From the NCBI GenBank assembly GCA_022820435.1, contig JAJEFL010000126.1, positions 4,419-68,418 on the forward strand: a DNA stretch of 64,000 nucleotides, read 5' to 3'. The notes under the pieces were generated by a model, which was given only the letters and a program-made list of their open reading frames with translations, did no database searches and was not told where the DNA came from. The first letter of the stretch is position 1, and every line of letters begins with the position of its first letter. This document shows, piece by piece, positions 17,601 to 30,922 of the stretch. Both the position numbers and the translations under genes were made by a program. This stretch comes from Rhodothermales bacterium (lineage in GTDB: Bacteria > Bacteroidota > Rhodothermia > Rhodothermales > Bin80).

Positions 17601-17752
17601 GATTACAGAGAATCGTTACGGGGCGGGATGTACAGGATGGTTTGTACATCAGTCCATGGACGGAGAATTCAAGTGAGGGAAGGTTGATATCTGATGCTAA
17701 CGGTCTGGATGAATCGGTTCTTTCACACTTACATCGAAAAAACTGATCCAGT

Positions 17753-17839
17753 TGGTGCCCGGGACTGGAATCGAACCAGCACGCCCGTAAGGGCACTGCC
17801 CCCTCAAGACAGCGCGTCTACCTATTCCGCCACCCGGGC
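17753..17839 (-). tRNA. tRNA-Leu(GAG), type II, CCA encoded
   Basis: Hand fold: GCCCGGG/CCCGGGC acceptor, GCG/CGC D stem, CTGTC/GGCAG anticodon stem with loop TTGAGGG, GCCC-TTAC-GGGC long variable arm, GCTGG/CCAGT T stem with TTCGATT loop, then ACCA. Confidence 0.9.
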
Positions 17840-17842
17840 TGA

Positions 17843-18245
17843 TGGTGATCCCGCCAGGGCTCGAACCTGGGACCCTCTGATTAACCTACCACACCGGCTT
17901 TCACCGGCCATCAATACGCATGTTGTGGTCTGGACCATCTCTTCACCCTTCCATATAAGGGGTGGGGTGGGCTGCGTATGGCCTCTGAGGGCTCTCTTGA
18001 ATCCGCACGATGCGGAACAGGGCGCAGGATGATTCCCTGTGACCCGGCACGGTCAAAGGAAAATGACTGGATTGCCCAATTCAAGGTTGCCTGCTGATTA
18101 CCCATCTATCCGCCGCATTTTTACGTGTGACGACGTATCGACGGCTTTAGGGCGTTCCAGCATACAGCAGCCTCCACTCACACAGTTTCCTGTATAAGGC
18201 TCCATGACTTAAAGTCAGATGCTCTTCCAACTGAGCTACGGGATC
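17843..18245 (-). tRNA. tRNA-Lys(UUU), split gene (5' exon 18245..18212, 3' exon 17884..17843), CCA encoded
   Basis: The joined exons give a perfect 76-nt cloverleaf: GATCCCG/CGGGATC acceptor, GCTC/GAGC D stem, TCTGA/TCAGA anticodon stem with loop CTTTTAA, GGGTC variable loop, and CCAGG/CCTGG T stem with TTCGAGC loop. Confidence 0.85.
17885..18211 (-). ncRNA. group I intron (IC3-like, ORF-less) in the anticodon loop of tRNA-Lys
   Basis: The insert follows U34 and ends in G. A hand fold gives P1-P9 in canonical order, with a bulged-A P7 and an S-like AAGAGAUGGUCC element (details in findings). Blocks GAGCCUU..GGAAAC and UGGGCAAUCC match the trnL(UAA) intron. Confidence 0.7.
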
Positions 18246-18303: not shown

Positions 18304-18705
18304 TCAACCCTGTATCTCCCAGAGTGTTTGCATGGGGAAGCGAAGGATCAGTTGTCCCTTCAACTTTGAAGGATCGAAATTGATGAATCCATGCGCCAGA
18401 TAGATCTCGGAAGGGAGGCAGCGCCAGAGGAATTTGAGTTCCCGGTCTCCCTGACGGTAATCATGTGTAAGGATCAATCCGACCAGCTGCTCTCGGCCAG
18501 AGCCCACAAATACATCCACTTCGGCCCCGTCGGAACTTGTCGTATTGCGGATGAATCCGTAATCCATCGGGTAAATAATTTCGGGATACCGCGGATGGGG
18601 GGTTTTTGCGGGGCGGTCCAGCAGGACTCCCTGGGAGAGAATTAATCTCTCCCAGCGATCCCACGGGAACCGGTCTTGCAATAACGCCGCATAGGCATCG
18701 GTCAT
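18304..18705 (-). CDS. inorganic pyrophosphatase-like small protein
   Basis: YPMDYGFIRNTTSSDGAEVDVFV resembles the family I PPase metal-binding segment (YGFIP.T...DGDP.DV). ATGA overlap with the aspS stop. Confidence 0.55.
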   Translation of the reverse strand: MTDAYAALLQDRFPWDRWERLILSQGVLLDRPAKTPHPRYPEIIYPMDYGFIRNTTSSDGAEVDVFVGSGREQLVGLILTHDYRQGDRELKFLWRCLPSEIYLAHGFINFDPSKLKGQLILRFPMQTLWEIQG

Positions 18706-20675: not shown

Positions 20676-22178
20676 ATGGCAACCAACATTAAACCCGCAC
20701 ACGCCGCACAATGGTTCGGCCATCCCCGTGGGCTTTCTACGTTATTCTTTACCGAACTCTGGGAGCGGTTCAGTTATTACGGTATGCGAGCACTTCTGGT
20801 GCTTTTCATGACGACTGCGGCTGCAGAGGGGAATCCAGGATTGGATTTCGGGGAAGGGAAGGCAGGCGCAATCTATGGTCTATACACATTCTTCGTGTAC
20901 GTTCTGGCACTGCCTGGCGGTTGGATTGCAGATAATCTCTGGGGGCAGCGGAAGGCGGTTTTTGTAGGGGGATGCATTATTGCGCTGGGGCACTTCACGA
21001 TGGCAGGTCCTCTGGTCGGCCTTCCGGATAACGGCAGTTTTTTTCTGGGATTGATGTTCATTGTCATCGGGACGGGCCTGCTGAAGCCGAATGTAAGCAC
21101 CATGGTGGGGGATTTATACCCCGAGGGGGGCGCAAGACGGGATGCAGGTTTCTCAATTTTTTATACGGGAATCAACCTTGGGGCATTTGCCGGCCCCATT
21201 CTGACGGGATGGCTGGGCGAATCCTACAATTGGCATTATGGATTTTCTCTGGCGGGCATCGGCATGATTCTCGGACTGATCCAGTACCGACTGGGCACAA
21301 AATATCTGGGGGAGGCGGGTCTCTTGAAGTCAGATGCCTCTGAAGATGCACTGAAGCAAAAAACGCGTATCACGTACATCGTGTTGGCGGGTTCATTCAT
21401 CGTCGCTGCGGTAGCGGGCACATTGCTTTTGCGGACCCTTTCTCTGGAGGTACTCGCTACAGCACTTGGATATGCAGTGATTGTAATTGCGGTGGCATTC
21501 TTTGCCTACCTGCTCATGTTCACCAATCACACCAGATTAGAGAAGAAGCGCCTGGTGGTCATTTTCTGGTTATTTATTCTGGCTGCGATTTTCTGGTCGG
21601 GATTTGAGCAGGCAGGGTCATCGCTCAACCTGTTTGCCCGGGATTCAACGGATCGGATGCTGGGGGGGTGGGAGTTGCCGGCCAGTTGGCTTCAATCGGT
21701 CAACTCTACCTTCATCATCATTCTTGCCCCGGTGTTTGGATCTCTCTGGGTTACGCTGGCCAGGCTGAAACGGAATCCATCGATTCCCGCCAAATTTGCC
21801 ATTGGGCTGTTAGGGTTGGCGGCAGGCTTTTTTGTCATTGCCTGGGGCGCGGCGAATGCGGAGGATGGTTCTCTGGTTTCGCCGGTCTGGCTGGTGGTCA
21901 TGTACTTTCTGCACACAGTGGGAGAATTAAGTCTGAGTCCGGTTGGACTCTCTTCCATTACCAAGTTGGCACCTGCAGGAAGGGTCGGGCAGATGATGGG
22001 GATCTGGTTTATTGGAACCGCATTGGGCAACCTGTTTGCCGGGCTTGTTGCCGGGCAGCTGGAGACGTTAAATGCGGCGGCTCTCTTTGGGAATGTTGCG
22101 ATGATTATTGGTGTTTCCGGGGTCGTAGCGCTTGCCGCATTTCCATGGATCAAGCGGCTGATGGGCGAGGTGGATTAG
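20676..22178 (+). CDS. proton-dependent oligopeptide transporter (POT/PTR2 family MFS)
   Basis: The track ORF starts inside aspS. The realistic start is ATG 20676, giving MATNIKPAHAAQWFGHPRGLSTLFFTELWERFSYYGMRALLVLFM (ExxERFxYYG PTR2 signature). Confidence 0.85.
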   Translation: MATNIKPAHAAQWFGHPRGLSTLFFTELWERFSYYGMRALLVLFMTTAAAEGNPGLDFGEGKAGAIYGLYTFFVYVLALPGGWIADNLWGQRKAVFVGGCIIALGHFTMAGPLVGLPDNGSFFLGLMFIVIGTGLLKPNVSTMVGDLYPEGGARRDAGFSIFYTGINLGAFAGPILTGWLGESYNWHYGFSLAGIGMILGLIQYRLGTKYLGEAGLLKSDASEDALKQKTRITYIVLAGSFIVAAVAGTLLLRTLSLEVLATALGYAVIVIAVAFFAYLLMFTNHTRLEKKRLVVIFWLFILAAIFWSGFEQAGSSLNLFARDSTDRMLGGWELPASWLQSVNSTFIIILAPVFGSLWVTLARLKRNPSIPAKFAIGLLGLAAGFFVIAWGAANAEDGSLVSPVWLVVMYFLHTVGELSLSPVGLSSITKLAPAGRVGQMMGIWFIGTALGNLFAGLVAGQLETLNAAALFGNVAMIIGVSGVVALAAFPWIKRLMGEVD

Positions 22179-22446
22179 ACTGCATCTGCCAGATCGGGTA
22201 GTTTCAATGATGAAATTCCACATGGATTCTTGGTCGTGATGGAATCCTGTCAGATGAAGTTGACCGCCCGACAGAAATATGGAATGCAGAAAAAACGATC
22301 ACTGTCATACGCAATTCGGCTCCACGGTTCGCTACTCTCCCTGTTATGCGTGCTGCCATGAAATGAAACTTTTTGGTGGTTCCAGAGAAACACACAGCTG
22401 ATACTGGATATTTGTATCCTCCGCAATATTTTCATCTTCAATTTTT

Positions 22447-23592
22447 ATGCAACTGTCTCCGTCCAGGTCATCGGAATTAGGCACGATCCATGTTGTTGGG
22501 CGATACCCTCCTCCGATAGACGGTCAGAGTTTAGCGACTCAATGTCTTGCGGATATGCTTCAGTCAGATTACAGGGTTAGGCGATTTAATATGACACTCG
22601 CGGATCAAGCTTTACTATCGTCAGGGTTTTCTGGAGCGCTAAGTACAATCGGACATTATCTGGGATTGAAGCCAAAATTAAAGGAAATTCTATCCGATGG
22701 CAATCTGGTGCTATGGGCAAGTATTTCCAGTCAACCATTCGGGCACTGGCGTGATCTTCTGGTTGTAATGTCATGCCTAAGTCCAGTTCAATCCCTGATT
22801 CCAGTAGTTCATTGGGGGAATTTTTCTCAACTATTCACTCATTGGAGCACTAAAATTACAGCAAGACACCTCATTCGCAGGGTAAATCAGGTTGTGGTAC
22901 TGAGTAACGAATTGGCAAACCAAATTGCGCGCTGGATTCCGGCAGACAAACTTTATGTGATTCCGAATTATGTGCAACCACTTGCCACAGAAGATGAACT
23001 TCAAATCAAACGCGAAAAATATTCCCTTTCAAAGACGCTCAGGGTTCTATTTCTGAGTCATATGATCAAAGAAAAAGGATGTTACGATCTTTTGCATGGA
23101 ATCTCAATTGCAGCCAGGGAAGGACTTTCAGTCGAGGCACATTTTGCCGGACGATGGAATAACAGTCAGGATGAAGAGCATTTCCATCGTGCAGTCAACC
23201 AGTTGGGGTTGACGAAATACGTTATCGTTCATGGGCCAATCACAGATCGGACATTCGTTGCCAGGCTTCATCGAGAAGCAGATGTGTTTGTGCTTCCGAG
23301 CTTCCTTCATCATGAAGCTCAACCTTTAGCAATAGTGGAGGCACTTAGCGCAGCAACTCCGGTAATTATTACCAATCGTCCTGTTTTTGAGGCAGTTGTT
23401 GGTTCTAAACAGGGGGCTTTACTGGTTCCTCCCCATAATCCACCGGCGATTGCAAAAGCTTTACAGTCGCTCGGTGACCAAGAGATGTGGCTGAATTGCT
23501 CGTTAGCTGTACGGAAGCACTATGAAACCGTCTATAGTCCAGAGGCCGTTCGGAAGCGATGGATTGGCCTTATAGAAAAGGTCTCCGGGTAA
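22447..23592 (+). CDS. glycosyltransferase, GT4 family
   Basis: C-terminal GT-B pattern: ADVFVLPSFLHHEAQPLAIVEALSAATPVIITN (E-x7-E region). Confidence 0.8.
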   Translation: MQLSPSRSSELGTIHVVGRYPPPIDGQSLATQCLADMLQSDYRVRRFNMTLADQALLSSGFSGALSTIGHYLGLKPKLKEILSDGNLVLWASISSQPFGHWRDLLVVMSCLSPVQSLIPVVHWGNFSQLFTHWSTKITARHLIRRVNQVVVLSNELANQIARWIPADKLYVIPNYVQPLATEDELQIKREKYSLSKTLRVLFLSHMIKEKGCYDLLHGISIAAREGLSVEAHFAGRWNNSQDEEHFHRAVNQLGLTKYVIVHGPITDRTFVARLHREADVFVLPSFLHHEAQPLAIVEALSAATPVIITNRPVFEAVVGSKQGALLVPPHNPPAIAKALQSLGDQEMWLNCSLAVRKHYETVYSPEAVRKRWIGLIEKVSG

Positions 23593-23903
23593 TGGCGAAC
23601 CTATCCCATAATTGGCTCTGCTGTACTATCTGTTCAGATAGATTGATTTTGTCCGTAAGGTGGTTTGATCAGTCCTTCAAACTTTGGATTAATCCTGTAT
23701 TTTGAGTCTCAAGTCGCCGGTAGACTTAGATATGCTGGATAATGAATTTCTTCTACAAATTGATCTTGTAGCATGACTCCTCCTTTTCTGGATTCTGGTC
23801 TTACGGGAAGAGATCATTATCATTCAAAGTATGTGAATTCACTTGAACGCCAAGCAGAATGGCTCCGTAGAGGGCAAAGCAGAAGGCAGACGCAATCTGT
23901 GCA

Positions 23904-24542
23904 TTGCTCAACCGAAATGGATTGGAGCCAGCGTCCGTTATGGATATTGGCTGCGGAACGGGTGCAGTAATTGCAGAACTCCAGCACCGAGAGATAGCTG
24001 GATCTTACTACGCGGTAGATTATTCAGTTGAGGCCATAGCATTCATAAAGGAAAATCTGCCAGGTGTGCACACGGTGGCAGGAGATATAACGGAAGTGAA
24101 TTTTGCCGAATTGTTCGGAAAGCAGGAATTTGACTTGGTTATCTGCAGCCATGTTTTGGAACATCTTGAGCATCCTTTACAATTCCTGGATGCCTTAGTA
24201 GATCTTACTTGGGGCAGTTTTATCGCTGAAGTGCCCTTGGAGAATTTAGTTTTCGGAAGAATCAAAGGAGCATTCCAGGATCGGAGCAGACACCCCGCTG
24301 GACATGTTCAATTCTTCAATAAGTCAGATTTCTCTGGGTTAATTTCCCGTGCAGGGCTGGACATCGTTGATGCATATGTCTACGCGCCGTTCTTCAACAG
24401 GCAGACCATCAAAGCTGTTTACAGCAATTGCAGTCAAGTTCAATATTTCCTTAAAATGTGTACGGAGCATTATTTCCCCAGATATGGTAGCATGCTGTGG
24501 TCCAGGCTTTATCATGCTCATATGGCGGTTCTCTGCCATTAA
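23904..24542 (+). CDS. class I SAM-dependent methyltransferase (probably frameshifted; N-terminal piece in ORF 23773..)
   Basis: The VMDIGCGTGAV motif I lies only ~13 aa after the TTG start. A plausible N-terminus sits in another frame starting at ATG 23773 (see finding). Confidence 0.7.
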   Translation: MLNRNGLEPASVMDIGCGTGAVIAELQHREIAGSYYAVDYSVEAIAFIKENLPGVHTVAGDITEVNFAELFGKQEFDLVICSHVLEHLEHPLQFLDALVDLTWGSFIAEVPLENLVFGRIKGAFQDRSRHPAGHVQFFNKSDFSGLISRAGLDIVDAYVYAPFFNRQTIKAVYSNCSQVQYFLKMCTEHYFPRYGSMLWSRLYHAHMAVLCH

Positions 24543-24768
24543 TCCCATCTGGTCTGTTCCTGTGTTGGTGGAGCAGGTATATGCTCAATGGATGAATACT
24601 CTAAGACTTCGTGGGTGGACGCAGGATCTCTGAAATATGGTCTAGATCGCTCCTTCTGCTACCCGAAAAGCCAACTGTCAGGCAGGCATAGGAGTTACGG
24701 GATCAATAAGCACATCCCTAAACGAAGACAATCTCGGTAATTGTATATTATTCTCCAGTGCCTGAATT

Positions 24769-25512
24769 TCAATCTGTTCTTAAGTAGGTTACCTTCGTCG
24801 CAGAGGTATGTATGGGAACATAGGATGCGTTCGTAAAATCATTTACGAGGCATCTGAGGCGTTTGGCGGCACCCGAATCCCCTGGAGAGTGGAGTTCATC
24901 GAAATTAATGCAAATTACTTTGGGTCTTTGACCGGCTTCAAACCAAGATCGAATCACCTCGTACTCAGCTCCCTCAATATTCAATTTTAAGAATTGGATT
25001 GAATCTCCTTGAATTTGCGCAATGACATCGTTTGGCGAAAGAACTTTTGCCTCAAAATATTCAGATGTATTCTGAAGATTCACGACTGAATGACTTACAT
25101 GATCAAGGTTCGAGGGCGCATAGAAGCGTATCATTTTAGACTCTGACCACGCGCCGTAAGGATGGAAGGTGATCAATTCTCGTTGCATAACATCTGAAGG
25201 TTCGGAGAGGATCCGTTCGCAATAGTTAATTGACCGGGGGGTGGGGTCAAAAATATGTACTTGCGCTCCCAGTTCTTCTGCTATGGCAATCTCAAAACTG
25301 ACATCTTCTCCCGCACCGAAGGATACGCCGGTTGCGTTACGAACGATATCCGGGGGAACGGCGTATCCTCCATAGGCTGATCCGTAGTAGACCATCTTTA
25401 GATCGGTCCTCGTCCGTGGTAATCCGATACGATAGAACCGGATCCGGTCTCTCAGAGTCTTCAGAGTGGCTGCTAGAGGAGTGGGAATAATTTTCTTTAT
25501 GGATTGGTTCAT
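24769..25512 (-). CDS. FkbM-family methyltransferase
   Basis: GVSFGAGEDVSFEIA, HIFDPTP and FLKLNIEGAEYEVI are typical of FkbM. The start was taken at MNQSIKK. Confidence 0.8.
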   Translation of the reverse strand: MNQSIKKIIPTPLAATLKTLRDRIRFYRIGLPRTRTDLKMVYYGSAYGGYAVPPDIVRNATGVSFGAGEDVSFEIAIAEELGAQVHIFDPTPRSINYCERILSEPSDVMQRELITFHPYGAWSESKMIRFYAPSNLDHVSHSVVNLQNTSEYFEAKVLSPNDVIAQIQGDSIQFLKLNIEGAEYEVIRSWFEAGQRPKVICINFDELHSPGDSGAAKRLRCLVNDFTNASYVPIHTSATKVTYLRTD

Positions 25513-25872
25513 ATCAAGCCTGAATACTTTTACATAGCGGTTCTTACAGAACGAATAATTCAGACACAAAAGCACTTTGAGACACCCTCAGGTCAATAAA
25601 TATATTCAAGGCTGGAAGTTTTGCAAGAGTTCGCATATTTACCCGGGTACTATTGGTTTCAGACAGGGTATTCATGGATGGCGATAGCCTGATTGACCGG
25701 GTCCATCCATATAGAATCAATCTTGAATCGCATCTTAAAAGATCGGCTGTCGTGAACAAAGATGCGATGAACTTACAGGCCATCCCTCTTTCTGCTTAAA
25801 CATGAATATCCTGATACAGGTTCCAAATATATTTTCTGTAAATCAGGTGGACTTCCATTTGGCGTTCTTCGT

Positions 25873-27021
25873 TCAGATGTGTGATTCTGCATATTCAATG
25901 GCTTGGATCAAGCCGTCAATCATTCCCTGTACCTGAAGATGCGATTGTGCATAGTCATATGCATGAGATGAAAAGGTTGCGTGATTTTCGAAGATCGTCA
26001 TTGTTGCGTTCACAAGTGCGTTGAGATCATCGTAAGATGCCAGCATCCCGTTAACACCGGGCTTCAGATATGTGATCTCGGGGCTGTGGTAGCGGATTTT
26101 CGGGTCAGGGCTGGTGCAGGTGACCACCGGAAGTCCCAGACAAAATGCGTGGTTCACATTTAATCCAACATATCCCGGACATACCATAACATCCGCTGCA
26201 TATATCCAGGGGGCAGAGTCTTCCAGGTTTGGAATTGTTCCAGGGAAGAAGACATTGCTCAGATTTTCACTCTGAGTGCGGGCCATCAATCGGTTTCGCT
26301 CTGGACCATCTCCAATCAAAACGAGAGAGGCTTCGCCTTCTCTACTCAATGCTTTGTGCAGGTTGAGTAGTACTTCGGGTCGCTTACCCGCAATAAGACG
26401 CCCGATAAATACCACAGTTCTGCCCTTTACAGGTATACCGAGGCGGGCACGGATAAAATCTTTTCCCTTCGCATCCAGAATCTGGTAGATCCCAAACAAT
26501 CTGTCTGTGTCTAATGTATTGCGGGCGACAAAACGGCGTTCAGGGGGAACATAGGGTTTGAGCAGGTCTGCAATTTCGTCGGTGTAGCAGACACAGCCAT
26601 CCGTGCGTTTGGCTAGTGCAATTCGATAGCGGTCAAGCAGGTTTCGTCCTGAAAATGTCCGTCGATTCGACGAAAAATGCCCCCAGAGCAATGTGCGAAT
26701 ATGTTTTGCCCGCGCAACTGACAGTAACCACGGGAGTGAGATGGTGCGAGGTGATTCCTCTGCAAGAATTACAGCGGGATCGCATTCAAAAATGGGCTGT
26801 GAATTTTGGATCAGTGCCCTCTGGTTGCCAATCCATCTGTTTTTCAGATCCACGCACTGGTAGGTTGGAGAGGAGCCACGAGACAGATTTTCAAAAGAAG
26901 TGTCACCGGCGATGCCTGCACACACGATAAGCCGTCCATCTAACTGTTCATTGAGTTTTTCTAGAATGGGGCGCCGATATTCCGGTACGAAACGTGCTAC
27001 ATAGACAATTGGGCGGTTCAT
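25873..27021 (-). CDS. glycosyltransferase, GT4 family
   Basis: GT-B C-terminal half: VVFIGRLIAGKRPEVLL...ADVMVCPGYVGLNVNHAFCLGLPVV. Confidence 0.8.
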   Translation of the reverse strand: MNRPIVYVARFVPEYRRPILEKLNEQLDGRLIVCAGIAGDTSFENLSRGSSPTYQCVDLKNRWIGNQRALIQNSQPIFECDPAVILAEESPRTISLPWLLSVARAKHIRTLLWGHFSSNRRTFSGRNLLDRYRIALAKRTDGCVCYTDEIADLLKPYVPPERRFVARNTLDTDRLFGIYQILDAKGKDFIRARLGIPVKGRTVVFIGRLIAGKRPEVLLNLHKALSREGEASLVLIGDGPERNRLMARTQSENLSNVFFPGTIPNLEDSAPWIYAADVMVCPGYVGLNVNHAFCLGLPVVTCTSPDPKIRYHSPEITYLKPGVNGMLASYDDLNALVNATMTIFENHATFSSHAYDYAQSHLQVQGMIDGLIQAIEYAESHI

Positions 27022-28193
27022 GCGGATGTCTGTTTAAGGATATGCTCAAATTGATTCGTTATTTTATTGATATCAAATTGTTCATCTGCCCATTTTCGAG
27101 CATTTTCACCTATGGTCCGACGCAATTCTGGTTCGTTAAGAAGCAGTTGGGTTTTCTGGACAAGCCCAGTGTAATCGTCTGGTTCGATAACAAACCCCGC
27201 CCCCGCGTTCTGAATAATCCGCGCCGCAAGATTTTCTTTGGGGATAGCCGCAAGAATTGGCCGGCCTGCACAGAGACAGGTCAGTACCTTTGATGGCACG
27301 GAAAACTGTCCAGCATCTTCGTTAAGTAAAACCAGGAGAAATTGTGCACTAGCATACATCGCAGATAGTTGGTCCACTTTCTGATAGGGTAGAACCGTTA
27401 GGTTATTGAGATTATGCTCAGCGATTGCTTTCGTAAGCCAATCCGCACCTGCCCCTTGGGAAACAACCACAATCTGGGCACGGATATCAATTTTTCGTGC
27501 AAGATGTAGCAGAATAGCGGGGTTATGCTTCATACTCAATGTGCCCGCATAAAGTAGAATGGGATGTTGATCAAGTTTATTTTTTCTCGCCCACATTGAG
27601 GGATCGCCTTGAACACTATCCAATGTGCCCCAGTTTTCAATCACATAGCAGCGATCAGGTAAAACCCCAAACTTCTGAAGGGCAGGAGTAAAATCCTCTG
27701 TGATTGAAATTACAGCATCACTCCTGCGAAGTAATCGTCCCTCAAGTGACTGAAAGTAGCGACCAATGACAGAGGAAAAAAGAGGAAGCTTTGATTTTAG
27801 AACTCTCGAAGTTGCCAATCCAATCAGGTCCTGCAGCCAAAACACAAACGGAATCCCGCTTTGTTTACATGATCGCAGGATGCGTTCCTGTGCATTTAGT
27901 GGTGCATTTGCAGAAATCACAATATCCGGTTTGAAACTTAGGACGGTCCGAGCCGCTAAGCGTCCATATTCCTGTTCCTGAATCCATCGCTGTACGAGAT
28001 TGTATTTATTCAGTGGGCGAGATGTCTGGATGGGCAGAGACTCAAAGGATGTAGCACGCTTACATACGTTATGTGGGGTCGTGATCAGATTGTCGCAATA
28101 GGCGTGTCCAACATCGTATCCACGATCATGAAGAGTTTGACTCAACGTAACGGGGAAGGCGTATGCTCCGAAATCGTGGATCAGTACTCGCAT
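27018..28193 (-). CDS. glycosyltransferase, GT4 family (WcaI/WbuB-like)
   Basis: The N-terminus MRVLIHDFGAYAFPVTLSQTL and the C-terminal GT-B pattern match. ATGA overlap with the downstream GT. Confidence 0.8.
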   Translation of the reverse strand: MRVLIHDFGAYAFPVTLSQTLHDRGYDVGHAYCDNLITTPHNVCKRATSFESLPIQTSRPLNKYNLVQRWIQEQEYGRLAARTVLSFKPDIVISANAPLNAQERILRSCKQSGIPFVFWLQDLIGLATSRVLKSKLPLFSSVIGRYFQSLEGRLLRRSDAVISITEDFTPALQKFGVLPDRCYVIENWGTLDSVQGDPSMWARKNKLDQHPILLYAGTLSMKHNPAILLHLARKIDIRAQIVVVSQGAGADWLTKAIAEHNLNNLTVLPYQKVDQLSAMYASAQFLLVLLNEDAGQFSVPSKVLTCLCAGRPILAAIPKENLAARIIQNAGAGFVIEPDDYTGLVQKTQLLLNEPELRRTIGENARKWADEQFDINKITNQFEHILKQTSA

Positions 28194-28268
28194 GATTCGA
28201 CAGATGAACCAGCAAGTTCGGCCTCATTTTCTGCACGGATCAAGGGATGCCATATGTATTTGAGAGGG

Positions 28269-29720
28269 TCACACACGGTTCTGTGTCTCAACAGATGAGG
28301 GATTAAGCTGATTTGATGATCGCTCACCTGAACCGGCAGCCAATCCGGCAGCAATTGCAATCACGAACAAGTAATTTTTCAGAAAAAACGGATTCTGTGT
28401 TAACGTAGAAATTGTTAATGCGATCAGTGGAACGGCGCCCGCCAAGCCAGCTAAGCGGGTCCAGCGTTCAGCAGTATTACTCCGGTACGCACGCAGTCCA
28501 AGTTTTATGGTTGAGTACCAGAAGTACAGGACAAGCCCCAATCCCCAAATGCCATATTTGTACCAGAGCCCGATATACCCATTATGCACAAATGAATCCG
28601 TATCTGTAGATTGATGAACGATATCATAAAACAGATAGGAAACGCCAGGCCCATATCCGATCAGAGGATTTACTACAGTTTTTTCAAAAACTGCCTGGGT
28701 CTCACGGAACCGGTTTACGAGAGACAGGTCTTGCGTAAATGACGTAGCAATTGTACTAAAACGTTCCGTAATTCCTTCAATAATCACATTCAGGAATGGA
28801 CCTAGCAGGATATATCCAACCCCAAGAATCAAAACACTAAGAATTGCACCTGTCGTAAGTATTTTGATTCGCTCAGATGTCTGGACCAGTAGGATAAGGG
28901 CTAGTACACCAAGCAAGAAAGCTAGCCAGAATCCACGCGCCTGCGTCATGATCAATCCAGCGAATGTAAATGCCAGTGCACTTGCGGAAAGTAGCAATGA
29001 AACAGGACCTCGGGCATAGATCAAAAGGGTCAGATTCATCAAAGAACCAATCATGAGCAGACAATCATTCACGACAACTCTGGATCCCGATACATGCCAC
29101 AGCGCCGTGGCATTTGATAAGTCCGACGCATACTCGATTGTATTTATAATAGCAACCACAACACTCATGATGACCACCATAATGAGGATAATCTTTGGGC
29201 CTGCTTGATGATGAACGACCGTATATTTGACTGGAAAGTAGATCAGCAACATAGAGAGTGAGATCAACTCGCTGAATGCGACCAGAAAATCCCCTTGGAA
29301 GAGTGTTGTAAGAATCAAGGTTGCAGGAAGCATACCCAAGAATAGGGCTATCGCATAATCTGACTTCTTGGTGAGGATCTTTGTCGGTTCTAAAATTTTG
29401 TGCTGTAGAAACCACATCAAAAGAACTGCATAAAGGTAGACTGCGTAGGCGATTTCGATCATCTGGAATCCTTCTTCATTTGAAGATATCAGTACAAATC
29501 CCAGAATGACTAACATCAGATTCAGGAGGGGGTTTATGAAGAAAAATCCAACTGCGATAATTCCTAGGGTGGTTGCAGGTAGTGCGATTAAATACAGGAC
29601 AGATCCGGTACTGGCGAGGGCGAAGGTCATCCCCAGGCTTAAAACGAGCCCGGCAATGATCAAGGCATTTCCAGTCTGGTAAATCCTCGGCGGAGAGGAG
29701 AGAATTCCAACTTGTTCCAT
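28269..29720 (-). CDS. O-antigen polymerase/ligase family membrane protein (Wzy-like)
   Basis: 483 aa with at least 10 hydrophobic helices and a larger loop (QARGFWLAFLLG) typical of the Wzy_C/O-antigen ligase family. Confidence 0.7.
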   Translation of the reverse strand: MEQVGILSSPPRIYQTGNALIIAGLVLSLGMTFALASTGSVLYLIALPATTLGIIAVGFFFINPLLNLMLVILGFVLISSNEEGFQMIEIAYAVYLYAVLLMWFLQHKILEPTKILTKKSDYAIALFLGMLPATLILTTLFQGDFLVAFSELISLSMLLIYFPVKYTVVHHQAGPKIILIMVVIMSVVVAIINTIEYASDLSNATALWHVSGSRVVVNDCLLMIGSLMNLTLLIYARGPVSLLLSASALAFTFAGLIMTQARGFWLAFLLGVLALILLVQTSERIKILTTGAILSVLILGVGYILLGPFLNVIIEGITERFSTIATSFTQDLSLVNRFRETQAVFEKTVVNPLIGYGPGVSYLFYDIVHQSTDTDSFVHNGYIGLWYKYGIWGLGLVLYFWYSTIKLGLRAYRSNTAERWTRLAGLAGAVPLIALTISTLTQNPFFLKNYLFVIAIAAGLAAGSGERSSNQLNPSSVETQNRV

Positions 29721-29755
29721 GACCTGCTCCAGTTCAAGTTTCGAGCTGAAACTCC

Positions 29756-30922
29756 TTATACTGCTGCTCCATCTGGAGACAACTTTGATGCAATCAGAGC
29801 ATAATTACGTTTCCACCAGGCACTGATAAGCACGTAAAGCACTGATAGAAGAAAGCCTGAGAATGTACTGACGACACAAATCGCAGCACGCCAGGGGCGG
29901 GCTTTCTCGGTAGGCGGAATGGCAGGATCAAGCACCTGCACAGATTTTGCTGCACGCTCCTCAGTCAGTTGTGCTTCTTCCAGTACCGGACGTGCAAACT
30001 CCATGAGGGTGGTCAGGATAACCGCTTCCTTTTCCAACTCGGCAAATTTTAATGCCACTCCCGGAAGACTGTCCTGAGATACGGGCATGAGTCGCTCCTG
30101 GCCTTCCAAAGCCTGATCATAGGATTCTCTTGCCTGCGCGACTGCCTGTTGAGCGGCACGCGTCTGGGAATGGTCGGGGCCATAAAGAAACAGCAGTTTG
30201 TCGAATTCGAGTTCAGCAAGAAAGATCTGGGATCGCCAATCTGTCAATCCGTCCATAAATGCAGCACCCTGTGCAGGCAGATCCAATACGCCTGTCTTCT
30301 CCTGGAGTGTACGGATTGCGGATAGTACCGTACTGAGGCTGTCTTCCATATCCTGATAGCGTTTCTCGACCGTTTGGCGATAGGATCTGGCCGTTTCTGT
30401 TGAGAGATCTATTCCCGTCTGGTTCAATTTTGAAACAAAAAAGTTCGCTATATCGGCAGCTCGCTGTGGCTCTTTATCATAAACTTGGATAGCAAGGTAG
30501 TTGTATTCATTGTCTACGACAAATTCAGTGTTTGCCGTCAACTCCTGAATCGCATTGTTCATTGGGGATTCACTGTCCGCAAGATCATACACATGAATAA
30601 GATCAAATTCTTCAACGACACCCTGTCTTACGGTGCGGCTGTTCAGGATGGCCAGTTCCTGCTGGTAGTCACTGACCAGTCCTCCCAGAAGTGAGGATGC
30701 ACTACTTCCGATACGTCCGCCGATCATGCTGGAAAGCAGACCGGAAGAGGTTTGTCCAGGAATCAGCAGACGTGTTTCTGCTAAATACCAGTTGGGCAGG
30801 AGAAGGCTGATGACTATCGCAGCGGCAGCGGTAAATCCCGTGACCCCAATCACCACCCATCGCCGGTGCAGGATCACTCGGATGACCGACCACACGATTT
30901 CAGTTGTGTTTGGATTGGTCAT
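29756..30922 (-). CDS. polysaccharide chain-length determinant (Wzz/GumC-like), no kinase domain
   Basis: The start was taken at MTNPNTTEIVW, an ATGA overlap with the upstream gene. It has an N-terminal TM, a long coiled periplasmic region and a C-terminal TM. No Walker-type BY-kinase domain is present. Confidence 0.7.
   Translation of the reverse strand: MTNPNTTEIVWSVIRVILHRRWVVIGVTGFTAAAAIVISLLLPNWYLAETRLLIPGQTSSGLLSSMIGGRIGSSASSLLGGLVSDYQQELAILNSRTVRQGVVEEFDLIHVYDLADSESPMNNAIQELTANTEFVVDNEYNYLAIQVYDKEPQRAADIANFFVSKLNQTGIDLSTETARSYRQTVEKRYQDMEDSLSTVLSAIRTLQEKTGVLDLPAQGAAFMDGLTDWRSQIFLAELEFDKLLFLYGPDHSQTRAAQQAVAQARESYDQALEGQERLMPVSQDSLPGVALKFAELEKEAVILTTLMEFARPVLEEAQLTEERAAKSVQVLDPAIPPTEKARPWRAAICVVSTFSGFLLSVLYVLISAWWKRNYALIASKLSPDGAAV

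Follow-up and report, generated by a model that had tools for sequence, protein, structure and literature searches.

Williams 2020 (bioRxiv 10.1101/2020.01.27.920355) extended the list of bacterial tRNA types known to be interrupted from 4 to 21, and the seed alignment of that study includes the tRNA-Lys intron classes Lys.3Ug, Lys.4Ug and Lys.2Ug. A 2026 survey (PMC13011429, supplement) gives introns between positions 34 and 35 of tRNA-Lys(TTT) in Actinomycetota, two of them typed IB2 and two IC3, lists introns at the same position of tRNA-Arg(TCT), and reports PD-(D/E)XK endonucleases in the tRNA-Arg(UCU) introns of other phyla. Here we describe an intron from Rhodothermales, located within a 64-kb stretch of DNA that was analysed as a whole (the window), which is a Rhodothermales addition to the already catalogued Lys.3Ug-type family of tRNA-Lys and tRNA-Arg(UCU) introns. 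It agrees with the catalogued seed Mle24.Lys.3Ug in its host tRNA, its insertion site (CUU/...g/UUAA), the U at position −1 and the terminal G, and the two introns have the core signatures UAUGCUGG(R)ACGCCC, GGGUAAUCAGCAGG, UCAGAGRCYAYACGC and GGUGAAGAKAURGUCCAGAC in common. The two differ in P7 (GGCC/GGUC here, GACU/AGUC in Mle24), in the P6 arm, which is about 90 nt longer here, and in host phylum, and their core identity is just 0.69.

A split tRNA-Lys(UUU) gene

The intervening sequence is 327 nt long (18211–17885, minus strand) and lies in the anticodon loop of a tRNA-Lys(UUU) gene. The 5′ exon (18212–18245, minus strand) supplies tRNA positions 1–34 and ends in CUGACUU, with U34 as the −1 base, as judged by ARAGORN on the ligated exons. 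The 3′ exon (17843–17884, minus strand) starts UUAAUCAGA and carries the discriminator A73 at 17846 and an encoded CCA at 17845–17843. Ligation of 18245–18212 to 17884–17846 gives what ARAGORN recognises as a canonical 74-nt tRNA-Lys(UUU) with its CCA encoded, the sequence of which is near that of the intact tRNA-Lys of E. faecalis and has the same A73 discriminator. The Rfam group I intron model RF00028 gives a full-model match at 17915–18221 (minus strand; 43.9 bits, E value 9.8e-10), accepted by an E-value threshold. The host of the split gene is thus tRNA-Lys(UUU), with a group I intron between U34 and U35. The original prediction had put such an intron at exactly 17885–18211 and at the same insertion site as in tRNA-Leu(UAA), and on both counts it was right.

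Default searches pass over this gene. ARAGORN in its default mode did not find the split tRNA-Lys, the sole tRNA it reported at this place being tRNA-Leu(GAG) (17753–17839), and Rfam at gathering thresholds detected just that tRNA-Leu(GAG) and not the intron, because 43.9 bits falls under the RF00028 gathering score of 50. The 5′ splice site of the intron carries a U·G wobble (U34·G13 in CUUUA/UGGAG), and the last intron base, at 17885, is a G. The longest same-strand open reading frame (ORF) overlapping the intron is 64 aa, and we therefore conclude that it contains no homing-endonuclease ORF. On the other strand, a 112-aa ORF that begins with ATG (17694–18032, plus strand) runs antisense to tRNA-Leu(GAG), the 3′ exon of tRNA-Lys and part of the intron; this ORF is almost certainly spurious. 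A scan for promoters and terminators near the tRNA gave nothing above chance.

Secondary structure and covariation

We drew up a P1–P9 structure for the intron in which P7 forms a pseudoknot, and we counted its pairs in a MAFFT alignment of the intron and its relatives (45 sequences). P1 (18200–18214, minus strand, as are all the elements that follow), read from the sequence, joins the exon CUU and the intron UA (18214–18210) to the guide UGGAG (18204–18200). The exon pairs are C32-G, U33-A and the wobble U34·G, and A31 stands opposite a C, so that the guide pairs with CUU alone and not, as had been proposed, with ACUU. Guide positions G13, A14, G15 and C16 are invariant in the 45 relatives. 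P2 (18177–18198) is a 9-bp hairpin capped by a GAAA tetraloop, and its main helix shows compensatory changes in 8 of 8 pairs. The columns of P1 and P2 are partly scrambled in the MAFFT alignment, with scatter in the loop lowering the paired fraction of P2, so the pair counts of 74–76% for these helices understate or blur their support.

The core follows. The stretch 18157–18172 holds, by pair counting, the 5′ strand of P3 (GGCUGC), J3/4 (UGUA) and the 5′ strand of P4 (UGCUGG); P3 is paired in 99.6% of cases, with compensatory changes in 5 of 6 pairs, and P4 in 100% (45 sequences). P5 and its P5a/P5b extension (18101–18152) are formed by CCC...GGG, CCGUCG/CGGCGG and ACGU/ACGU, and within the Rhodothermales set P5b covaries from ACGU to ACGC/GCGU. 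The Rfam alignment and the curated seed alignment place the P5′/J5-4/P4′/P6 block at GGGUAAUCAGCAGGCAA (18087–18103), which is unchanged in 10 of 12 Rhodothermales-clade sequences and has a single U-to-C change in the other two (GGGCAAUC...). P6, P6a and a lineage-specific P6b/c extension of about 76 nt occupy 17990–18091 (folding energy −34.1 kcal/mol, z −2.85), the extension varying in length and sequence among relatives and missing from the Actinomycetota members. J6/7, the 5′ strand of P7 (G(A)GGCCA), J7/3 and the 3′ strand of P3 (GCAGCC) lie at 17970–17989. P7 has a bulged A and the guanosine-binding G-C pair, is paired in 100% of the 45 sequences and shows a CG-to-UA compensatory change. 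The P8 hairpin (CACCC...GGGUG), J8/7 (AAGAGA) and the 3′ strand of P7 (UGGUCC) are at 17932–17969, and P9 (CCAC/GUGG), the P9b hairpin with its GAAA tetraloop and the tail UAGG, which ends in the terminal G, are at 17885–17928. P9 and P9b are paired in 100% of cases, and P9b has compensatory changes in 5 of 5 pairs.

Across the 45 sequences, 88.8% of cells are paired, as against 75.8% in shuffled alignments and 35–44% when partners are slid, and the covariation score is 0.343 as against 0.151. Helices P3, P4, P5, P7, P8, P9 and P9b are 99–100% paired, changes on both sides occur in 43 of 69 pairs, the bulged A of P7 and its flanking G-C pairs are invariant, and the loops L2 and L9b are of the GNRA type. 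The intron therefore has a group I core from P3 to P9, including the P7 pseudoknot with its bulged A and guanosine-binding G-C pair.

The original prediction rested on three blocks said to match the core of the tRNA-Leu(UAA) intron, and all three strings are present (block 1, 18205–18174; block 2, 18080–18067; block 3, 17989–17970). Block 1 was correctly recognised as the guide sequence and the GAAA-capped P2, and block 3 as J6/7, P7, J7/3 and the 3′ strand of P3. Such introns have these elements in common: the guide is constrained by the exon CUU, P2 bears a GNRA cap, and block 3 is the universal P7/P3′ core. Block 2, AUUGGGCAAUCCAG, had been taken for the counterpart of the element to which the trnL ‘g’ primer is directed, an assignment with which the Rfam model and the curated alignment disagree, since both put that element at GGGUAAUCAGCAGGCAA, 9 nt upstream of block 2 (27 nt start to start). 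Block 2 is instead the 5′ strand of P6b (18067–18080), a peripheral helix outside the core, and is not conserved even in the closest relatives; the 9-mer GGGCAATCC occurs three times in the 64-kb window, where 1.2 occurrences are expected by chance. When aligned by eye, the P6b strand UUGGGCAAUCCAG resembles the P5′/P4′ strand AUGGGUAAUCAGC, which starts 27 nt upstream, at 11 of 13 positions with one gap. The likeness may be accidental, or the P6 arm may have been seeded by an ancient local duplication. An ungapped repeat finder gave no direct repeat between the P4′ block (18087–18103) and block 2 (18067–18080).

Kinship, hosts and subgroup

To compare the intron with catalogued classes we added it (MAFFT --add) to the curated 26-sequence seed alignment, having first trimmed 76 nt of P6 because the long P6 arm misaligned the 5′ half. 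In this alignment, core identity to Mle24.Lys.3Ug compares with 0.53 to both cyanobacterial Leu.3Ug seeds, a value equal to that for the tmRNA intron Tsu4, and Mle24.Lys.3Ug is the neighbour-joining sister of our intron with 94% bootstrap support. The intron of Microbacterium sp. Leaf288 has the same sequence as Mle24.Lys.3Ug. With tRNA-Lys(UUU) as its host, position 3 (34/35) as its site, U at −1, a terminal G and a place beside the seed, the intron has the features of the Lys.3Ug class.

A second tree, made from an E-INS-i alignment with the seeds from which P1 and the columns used for pattern fishing had been removed, unites the tRNA-Lys and tRNA-Arg(UCU) introns in one clade (88.5% bootstrap), with every other seed, including all Leu seeds, outside it; the Rhodothermales introns form a clade of their own (87%). 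Jukes–Cantor (JC) distances from the intron to the outside seeds run from 0.74 (Thr.3Ug) upward, and the two Leu.3Ug seeds, with 0.90 and 1.03, lie no nearer than Thr.3Ug, fMet.2Ug, Lys.4Ug or Arg.5Ug. The tRNA-Leu(UAA) intron shares with this one the insertion position, the CUU·GAG logic of P1, the general layout and presumably the chemistry. Insertion at 34/35 with a CUU·GAG P1 is not diagnostic of that lineage, however, since it is common to the Arg(UCU) introns and to the Thr, Ser and Arg ‘3Ug’ classes; the host here is tRNA-Lys, and neither core nor phylogeny is closer to Leu(UAA). The Leu(UAA) intron and the other classical IC3 tRNA introns (Azoarcus Ile, Agrobacterium Arg(CCU), fMet) are 0.51–0.53 identical to our intron in the core and fall in a separate clade.

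In overall architecture the intron resembles those of subgroup IC3. It lacks their core signatures (J3/4 AAA, P4 UCGGGG/CCCGA and GUAGAGACUAGACGG): where classical introns have AAA in J3/4, UCGGGG/CCCGA in P4 and GUAGAG, this one has UGUA, UGCUGG/UCAGCA and UCAGAG, and P6 differs too. The two Actinomycetota introns that carry an IB2 label in PMC13011429 (GCF_009930795.1 and GCF_022919715.1) have a core identity of 92% to Mle24 and of 0.65–0.68 to the Rhodothermales intron, and therefore belong to the family of the latter, although they have GGUGGUGA in J8/7 where the Rhodothermales intron has GGUGAAGA and are without the long P6 arm. The IC3-typed pair at the same site of tRNA-Lys(TTT) has a classical core and is just 0.51–0.52 identical to the Rhodothermales intron. 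Introns of the IB2-labelled family and introns of IC3 type thus both occur at Lys 34/35, and two unrelated lineages use the same site.

The original prediction had proposed that the intron is homologous to the cyanobacterial and plastid tRNA-Leu(UAA) intron and of subgroup IC3, and had named two outcomes that would count against it: shared blocks no better than those with unrelated group I subgroups, and a subgroup other than IC3. Core identity to the Leu introns is no better than to the tmRNA intron, and with two family members typed IB2 the IC3 premise is doubtful; taken together, identity, distance, bootstrap and signatures essentially amount to the first outcome, and the absent IC3 signatures and the IB2 labels of relatives lean towards the second. 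Specific descent from the cyanobacterial or plastid tRNA-Leu(UAA) intron is not supported.

We searched the representative genomes of GTDB once, with the R and J8/7-P7 blocks as the pattern, and obtained at least 120 loci; boundaries were set by requiring CUU at −3 to −1, G as the last base, xUAA and a paired stem, and were checked with ARAGORN. Among these loci, at least 82 are introns at 34/35 of tRNA-Lys(UUU) and at least 23 at 34/35 of tRNA-Arg(UCU), always after CUU and in many phyla. Among the matches listed, the Lys hosts include Microbacterium, Agromyces, Solirubrobacterales, Thermoleophilia, Rhodothermales with sponge ‘Bacteroidota’ metagenome-assembled genomes (MAGs), Chloroflexota, Singulisphaera and Saccharibacteria, and the Arg(UCU) hosts include Omnitrophota, Elusimicrobiota, Planctomycetia, Ignavibacteria, Anaerolineae and a ‘Deltaproteobacteria’ MAG. 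Calls of Thr, Gln and ‘Leu(taa)’ hosts at some scan loci proved on inspection to be artefacts of ARAGORN or of the heuristic.

The Arg(UCU) introns (in Omnitrophota, Elusimicrobiota, Planctomycetia and others) form a sister clade within the family and share the site after CUU, the GGAGC guide and the R and J8/7-P7 blocks; they differ in host tRNA, in P4 (UGCAAG/UUUGCA) and in a short P8 loop, and many are 600–680 nt long. In a reduced tree one Arg(UCU) intron is nested among Lys introns, and the Rhodothermales clade is sister to a Solirubrobacterales/Thermoleophilia clade, so that the intron tree conflicts with organism phylogeny. This pattern in the sequences points to old transfer between phyla and at least one host switch within the Lys/Arg(UCU) family. 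An old lateral transfer, which had been offered as one explanation for the intron, fits a tree of this kind, and the idea of movement between loops that begin with CUU agrees with the close relatives at the same site of tRNA-Arg(UCU), whose loop also begins CUU, although specific kinship with the tRNA-Leu(UAA) intron is not supported.

Several observations concern individual members of the scan set. Arg(UCU) 34/35 introns of 625–683 nt, as against about 200 nt in relatives, occur at L014, L022, L026, L075, L093–L095, L101–L102, L106, L114 and other loci, with hosts in Omnitrophota, Elusimicrobiota and Planctomycetia, and are long enough for an ORF. Two Chloroflexota tRNA-Lys introns, one of about 700 nt in an Anaerolineae MAG (L112) and one of 252 nt (L004), have near-identical ends, and the length difference suggests an insertion inside the longer one. 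When phages and plasmids were searched with the locus by BLASTN, the matches were to the tRNA exons only, apart from one unrelated group I intron resembling that of Azoarcus (about 250 nt; RF00028, 34.1 bits), which lies between positions 36 and 37 of a tRNA-Thr(UGU) on a 1.26-Mb replicon of Tritonibacter mobilis F1926 (NZ_CP015231.1, L001:375–700), where the tRNA is unannotated in the record and missed by default ARAGORN.

The Rhodothermales locus, its readings and its meaning

Downstream of the split gene, tRNA-Leu(GAG) (17753–17839, minus strand) begins 3 nt after the CCA of tRNA-Lys as a syntenic partner outside the intron. Upstream, at a distance of 58 nt, lies orf133 (133 aa; 18304–18705, minus strand), which overlaps the stop codon of the aspartyl-tRNA synthetase (AspRS) gene by 4 nt. 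Its only Pfam resemblance, weak and partial, is to inorganic pyrophosphatase (25.2 bits, residues 39–75 only), and it is conserved beside the tRNA in relatives with and without the intron. The order POT transporter, AspRS, orf133, tRNA-Lys with intron and tRNA-Leu(GAG) is kept in Rhodothermales intron-plus loci. The GTDB representative set does not contain the window itself; among the matches listed, the loci nearest to it come from two MAGs, one of Rhodothermales (L005) and one of a sponge ‘Bacteroidetes’ (L049), whose DNA is about 81% and whose AspRS is 88% identical to that of the window.

When metagenomes were scanned for the same acceptor arm with a junction lacking the intron, 14 loci came back, in which the uninterrupted tRNA-Lys(UUU) has as neighbours, as far as the contigs reach, orf133 in 12, AspRS in 9, POT in 8 and tRNA-Leu(GAG) in 6. 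In a tree of AspRS, the loci with the intron and those without it form two clades, each the sister of the other. This arrangement fits a single gain or loss at the Rhodothermales locus followed by vertical inheritance, within the limits on inference set by the fact that both sets were fished by sequence pattern and are to that extent a biased sample. Elsewhere in the window, G+C content falls from about 0.52–0.55 to 0.44–0.48 over some 8 kb (22000–30000), beginning at a glycosyltransferase-like ORF (22447–23592); this stretch may be a laterally acquired island of polysaccharide genes.

The junctions read CUU|U...GG|UUAA, so that a shift of the register by one base is possible; the intron would then lie between positions 33 and 34, and the host would be tRNA-Asn(GUU). 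ARAGORN, when run with introns allowed (-i), reports this reading, which likewise yields a 7-nt loop, an intron that ends in G and a U at −1. We give it next to no chance. In the Asn register U33 pairs with A, and the splice-site wobble U·G is found in the Lys register only; the tRNA body closely resembles bona fide tRNA-Lys and its discriminator is A73, as in E. faecalis tRNA-Lys, whereas bacterial tRNA-Asn usually has G73; and the syntenic intron-less orthologues are tRNA-Lys(UUU). Moreover, 7 of the 82 Lys introns among the matches listed end in AAG or ACG, so that only the Lys register leaves them a terminal G and tRNA-Asn(GUU) is excluded for these seven. A different doubt is whether the tRNA-Lys gene is alive, for it might be a decaying, non-splicing relic (a tRNA pseudogene) with another tRNA-Lys gene doing the work. 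The Rfam score below the gathering threshold and the large, variable P6 arm would suit a relic, and our view covers 64 kb of the genome, so that a second, uninterrupted tRNA-Lys(UUU), if present, could let the split copy decay. Decay is nonetheless most improbable given that the positions of the catalytic core are all invariant, that the helices are kept by compensatory changes across genomes whose AspRS is 66–88% identical to that of the window, that both exons are intact, and that the corresponding locus of the sister clade has just one tRNA-Lys(UUU), which is uninterrupted.

As to ancestry, the intron could be an offshoot of the cyanobacterial/plastid tRNA-Leu(UAA) IC3 intron, transposed to tRNA-Lys by way of the common CUU at the start of the loop. 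Position 34/35 and the CUU/GAG P1 are identical in the two, both have P2 with GAAA and P9 with a GAAA hairpin, and related introns do occupy different CUU-type loops. Such an origin is nevertheless hardly likely, because the core is nearer to Lys.3Ug than to either Leu.3Ug seed and no nearer to these than to the tmRNA intron, the Leu seeds lie outside the Lys/Arg(UCU) clade, the J3/4, P4, P6 and R signatures differ, block 2 was misassigned, family members have been published as IB2, and the IC3-type intron that does occur at Lys 34/35 in Actinomycetota is a separate one. We are confident that the element is a group I intron of the Lys.3Ug family (Williams 2020), in all likelihood self-splicing, between U34 and U35 of tRNA-Lys(UUU), its splicing chemistry and in vivo function being what we infer from the standard group I pathway. 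The intron is genuine and probably functional.

A self-splicing Lys.3Ug-type intron would be expected to follow the standard group I pathway. The precursor is probably made together with the adjacent tRNA-Leu(GAG). Exon bases C32, U33 and U34 would pair with GAG within the guide UGGAG to form P1, with U34·G marking the 5′ splice site. That site would then be attacked by a free guanosine docked in P7 at the G-C pair beside the bulged A. The terminal G at 17885 would next replace the guanosine in its P7 site, and the freed 3′-OH of U34 would attack the 3′ splice site, joining the exons into mature tRNA-Lys(UUU). GNRA tetraloops on P2 and P9b and the long P5 and P6 arms would stabilise the fold. 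The intron has no endonuclease gene. It is probably inherited vertically at one syntenic locus in a Rhodothermales clade, and the family as a whole has probably moved between phyla and between tRNA-Lys(UUU) and tRNA-Arg(UCU).

The intron is not a new kind of element and provides no link of plastid trnL introns to tRNA-Lys; what it adds is a phylum-level host for a catalogued intron family, a clean split between presence and absence at a syntenic locus, and a tRNA-Lys anticodon-loop site used by two unrelated intron lineages. There is also a consequence for annotation. Since default ARAGORN and the Rfam gathering threshold miss the gene, genomes of the Rhodothermales clade, a good many of which are MAGs from sponges or the sea, will seem to be without tRNA-Lys(UUU), and gene calling can place the spurious 112-aa ORF over the locus in its stead. 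We put forward, tentatively and as a possibility that is rather less than likely, that the family is a lineage apart from the classical IC3 introns that independently colonised the Lys 34/35 site used by IC3 introns in other Actinomycetota and moved between tRNA-Lys and tRNA-Arg and between phyla without a homing endonuclease, a pattern to be expected if the 3-nt CUU·GAG pairing guides reverse splicing. If this were true, the P6 arm peculiar to the lineage, about 100 nt long, may have gained a function of its own, and the intron-plus and intron-minus sister clades of Rhodothermales, together with the Lys/Arg pairs, would be a natural test set for endonuclease-free transposition.
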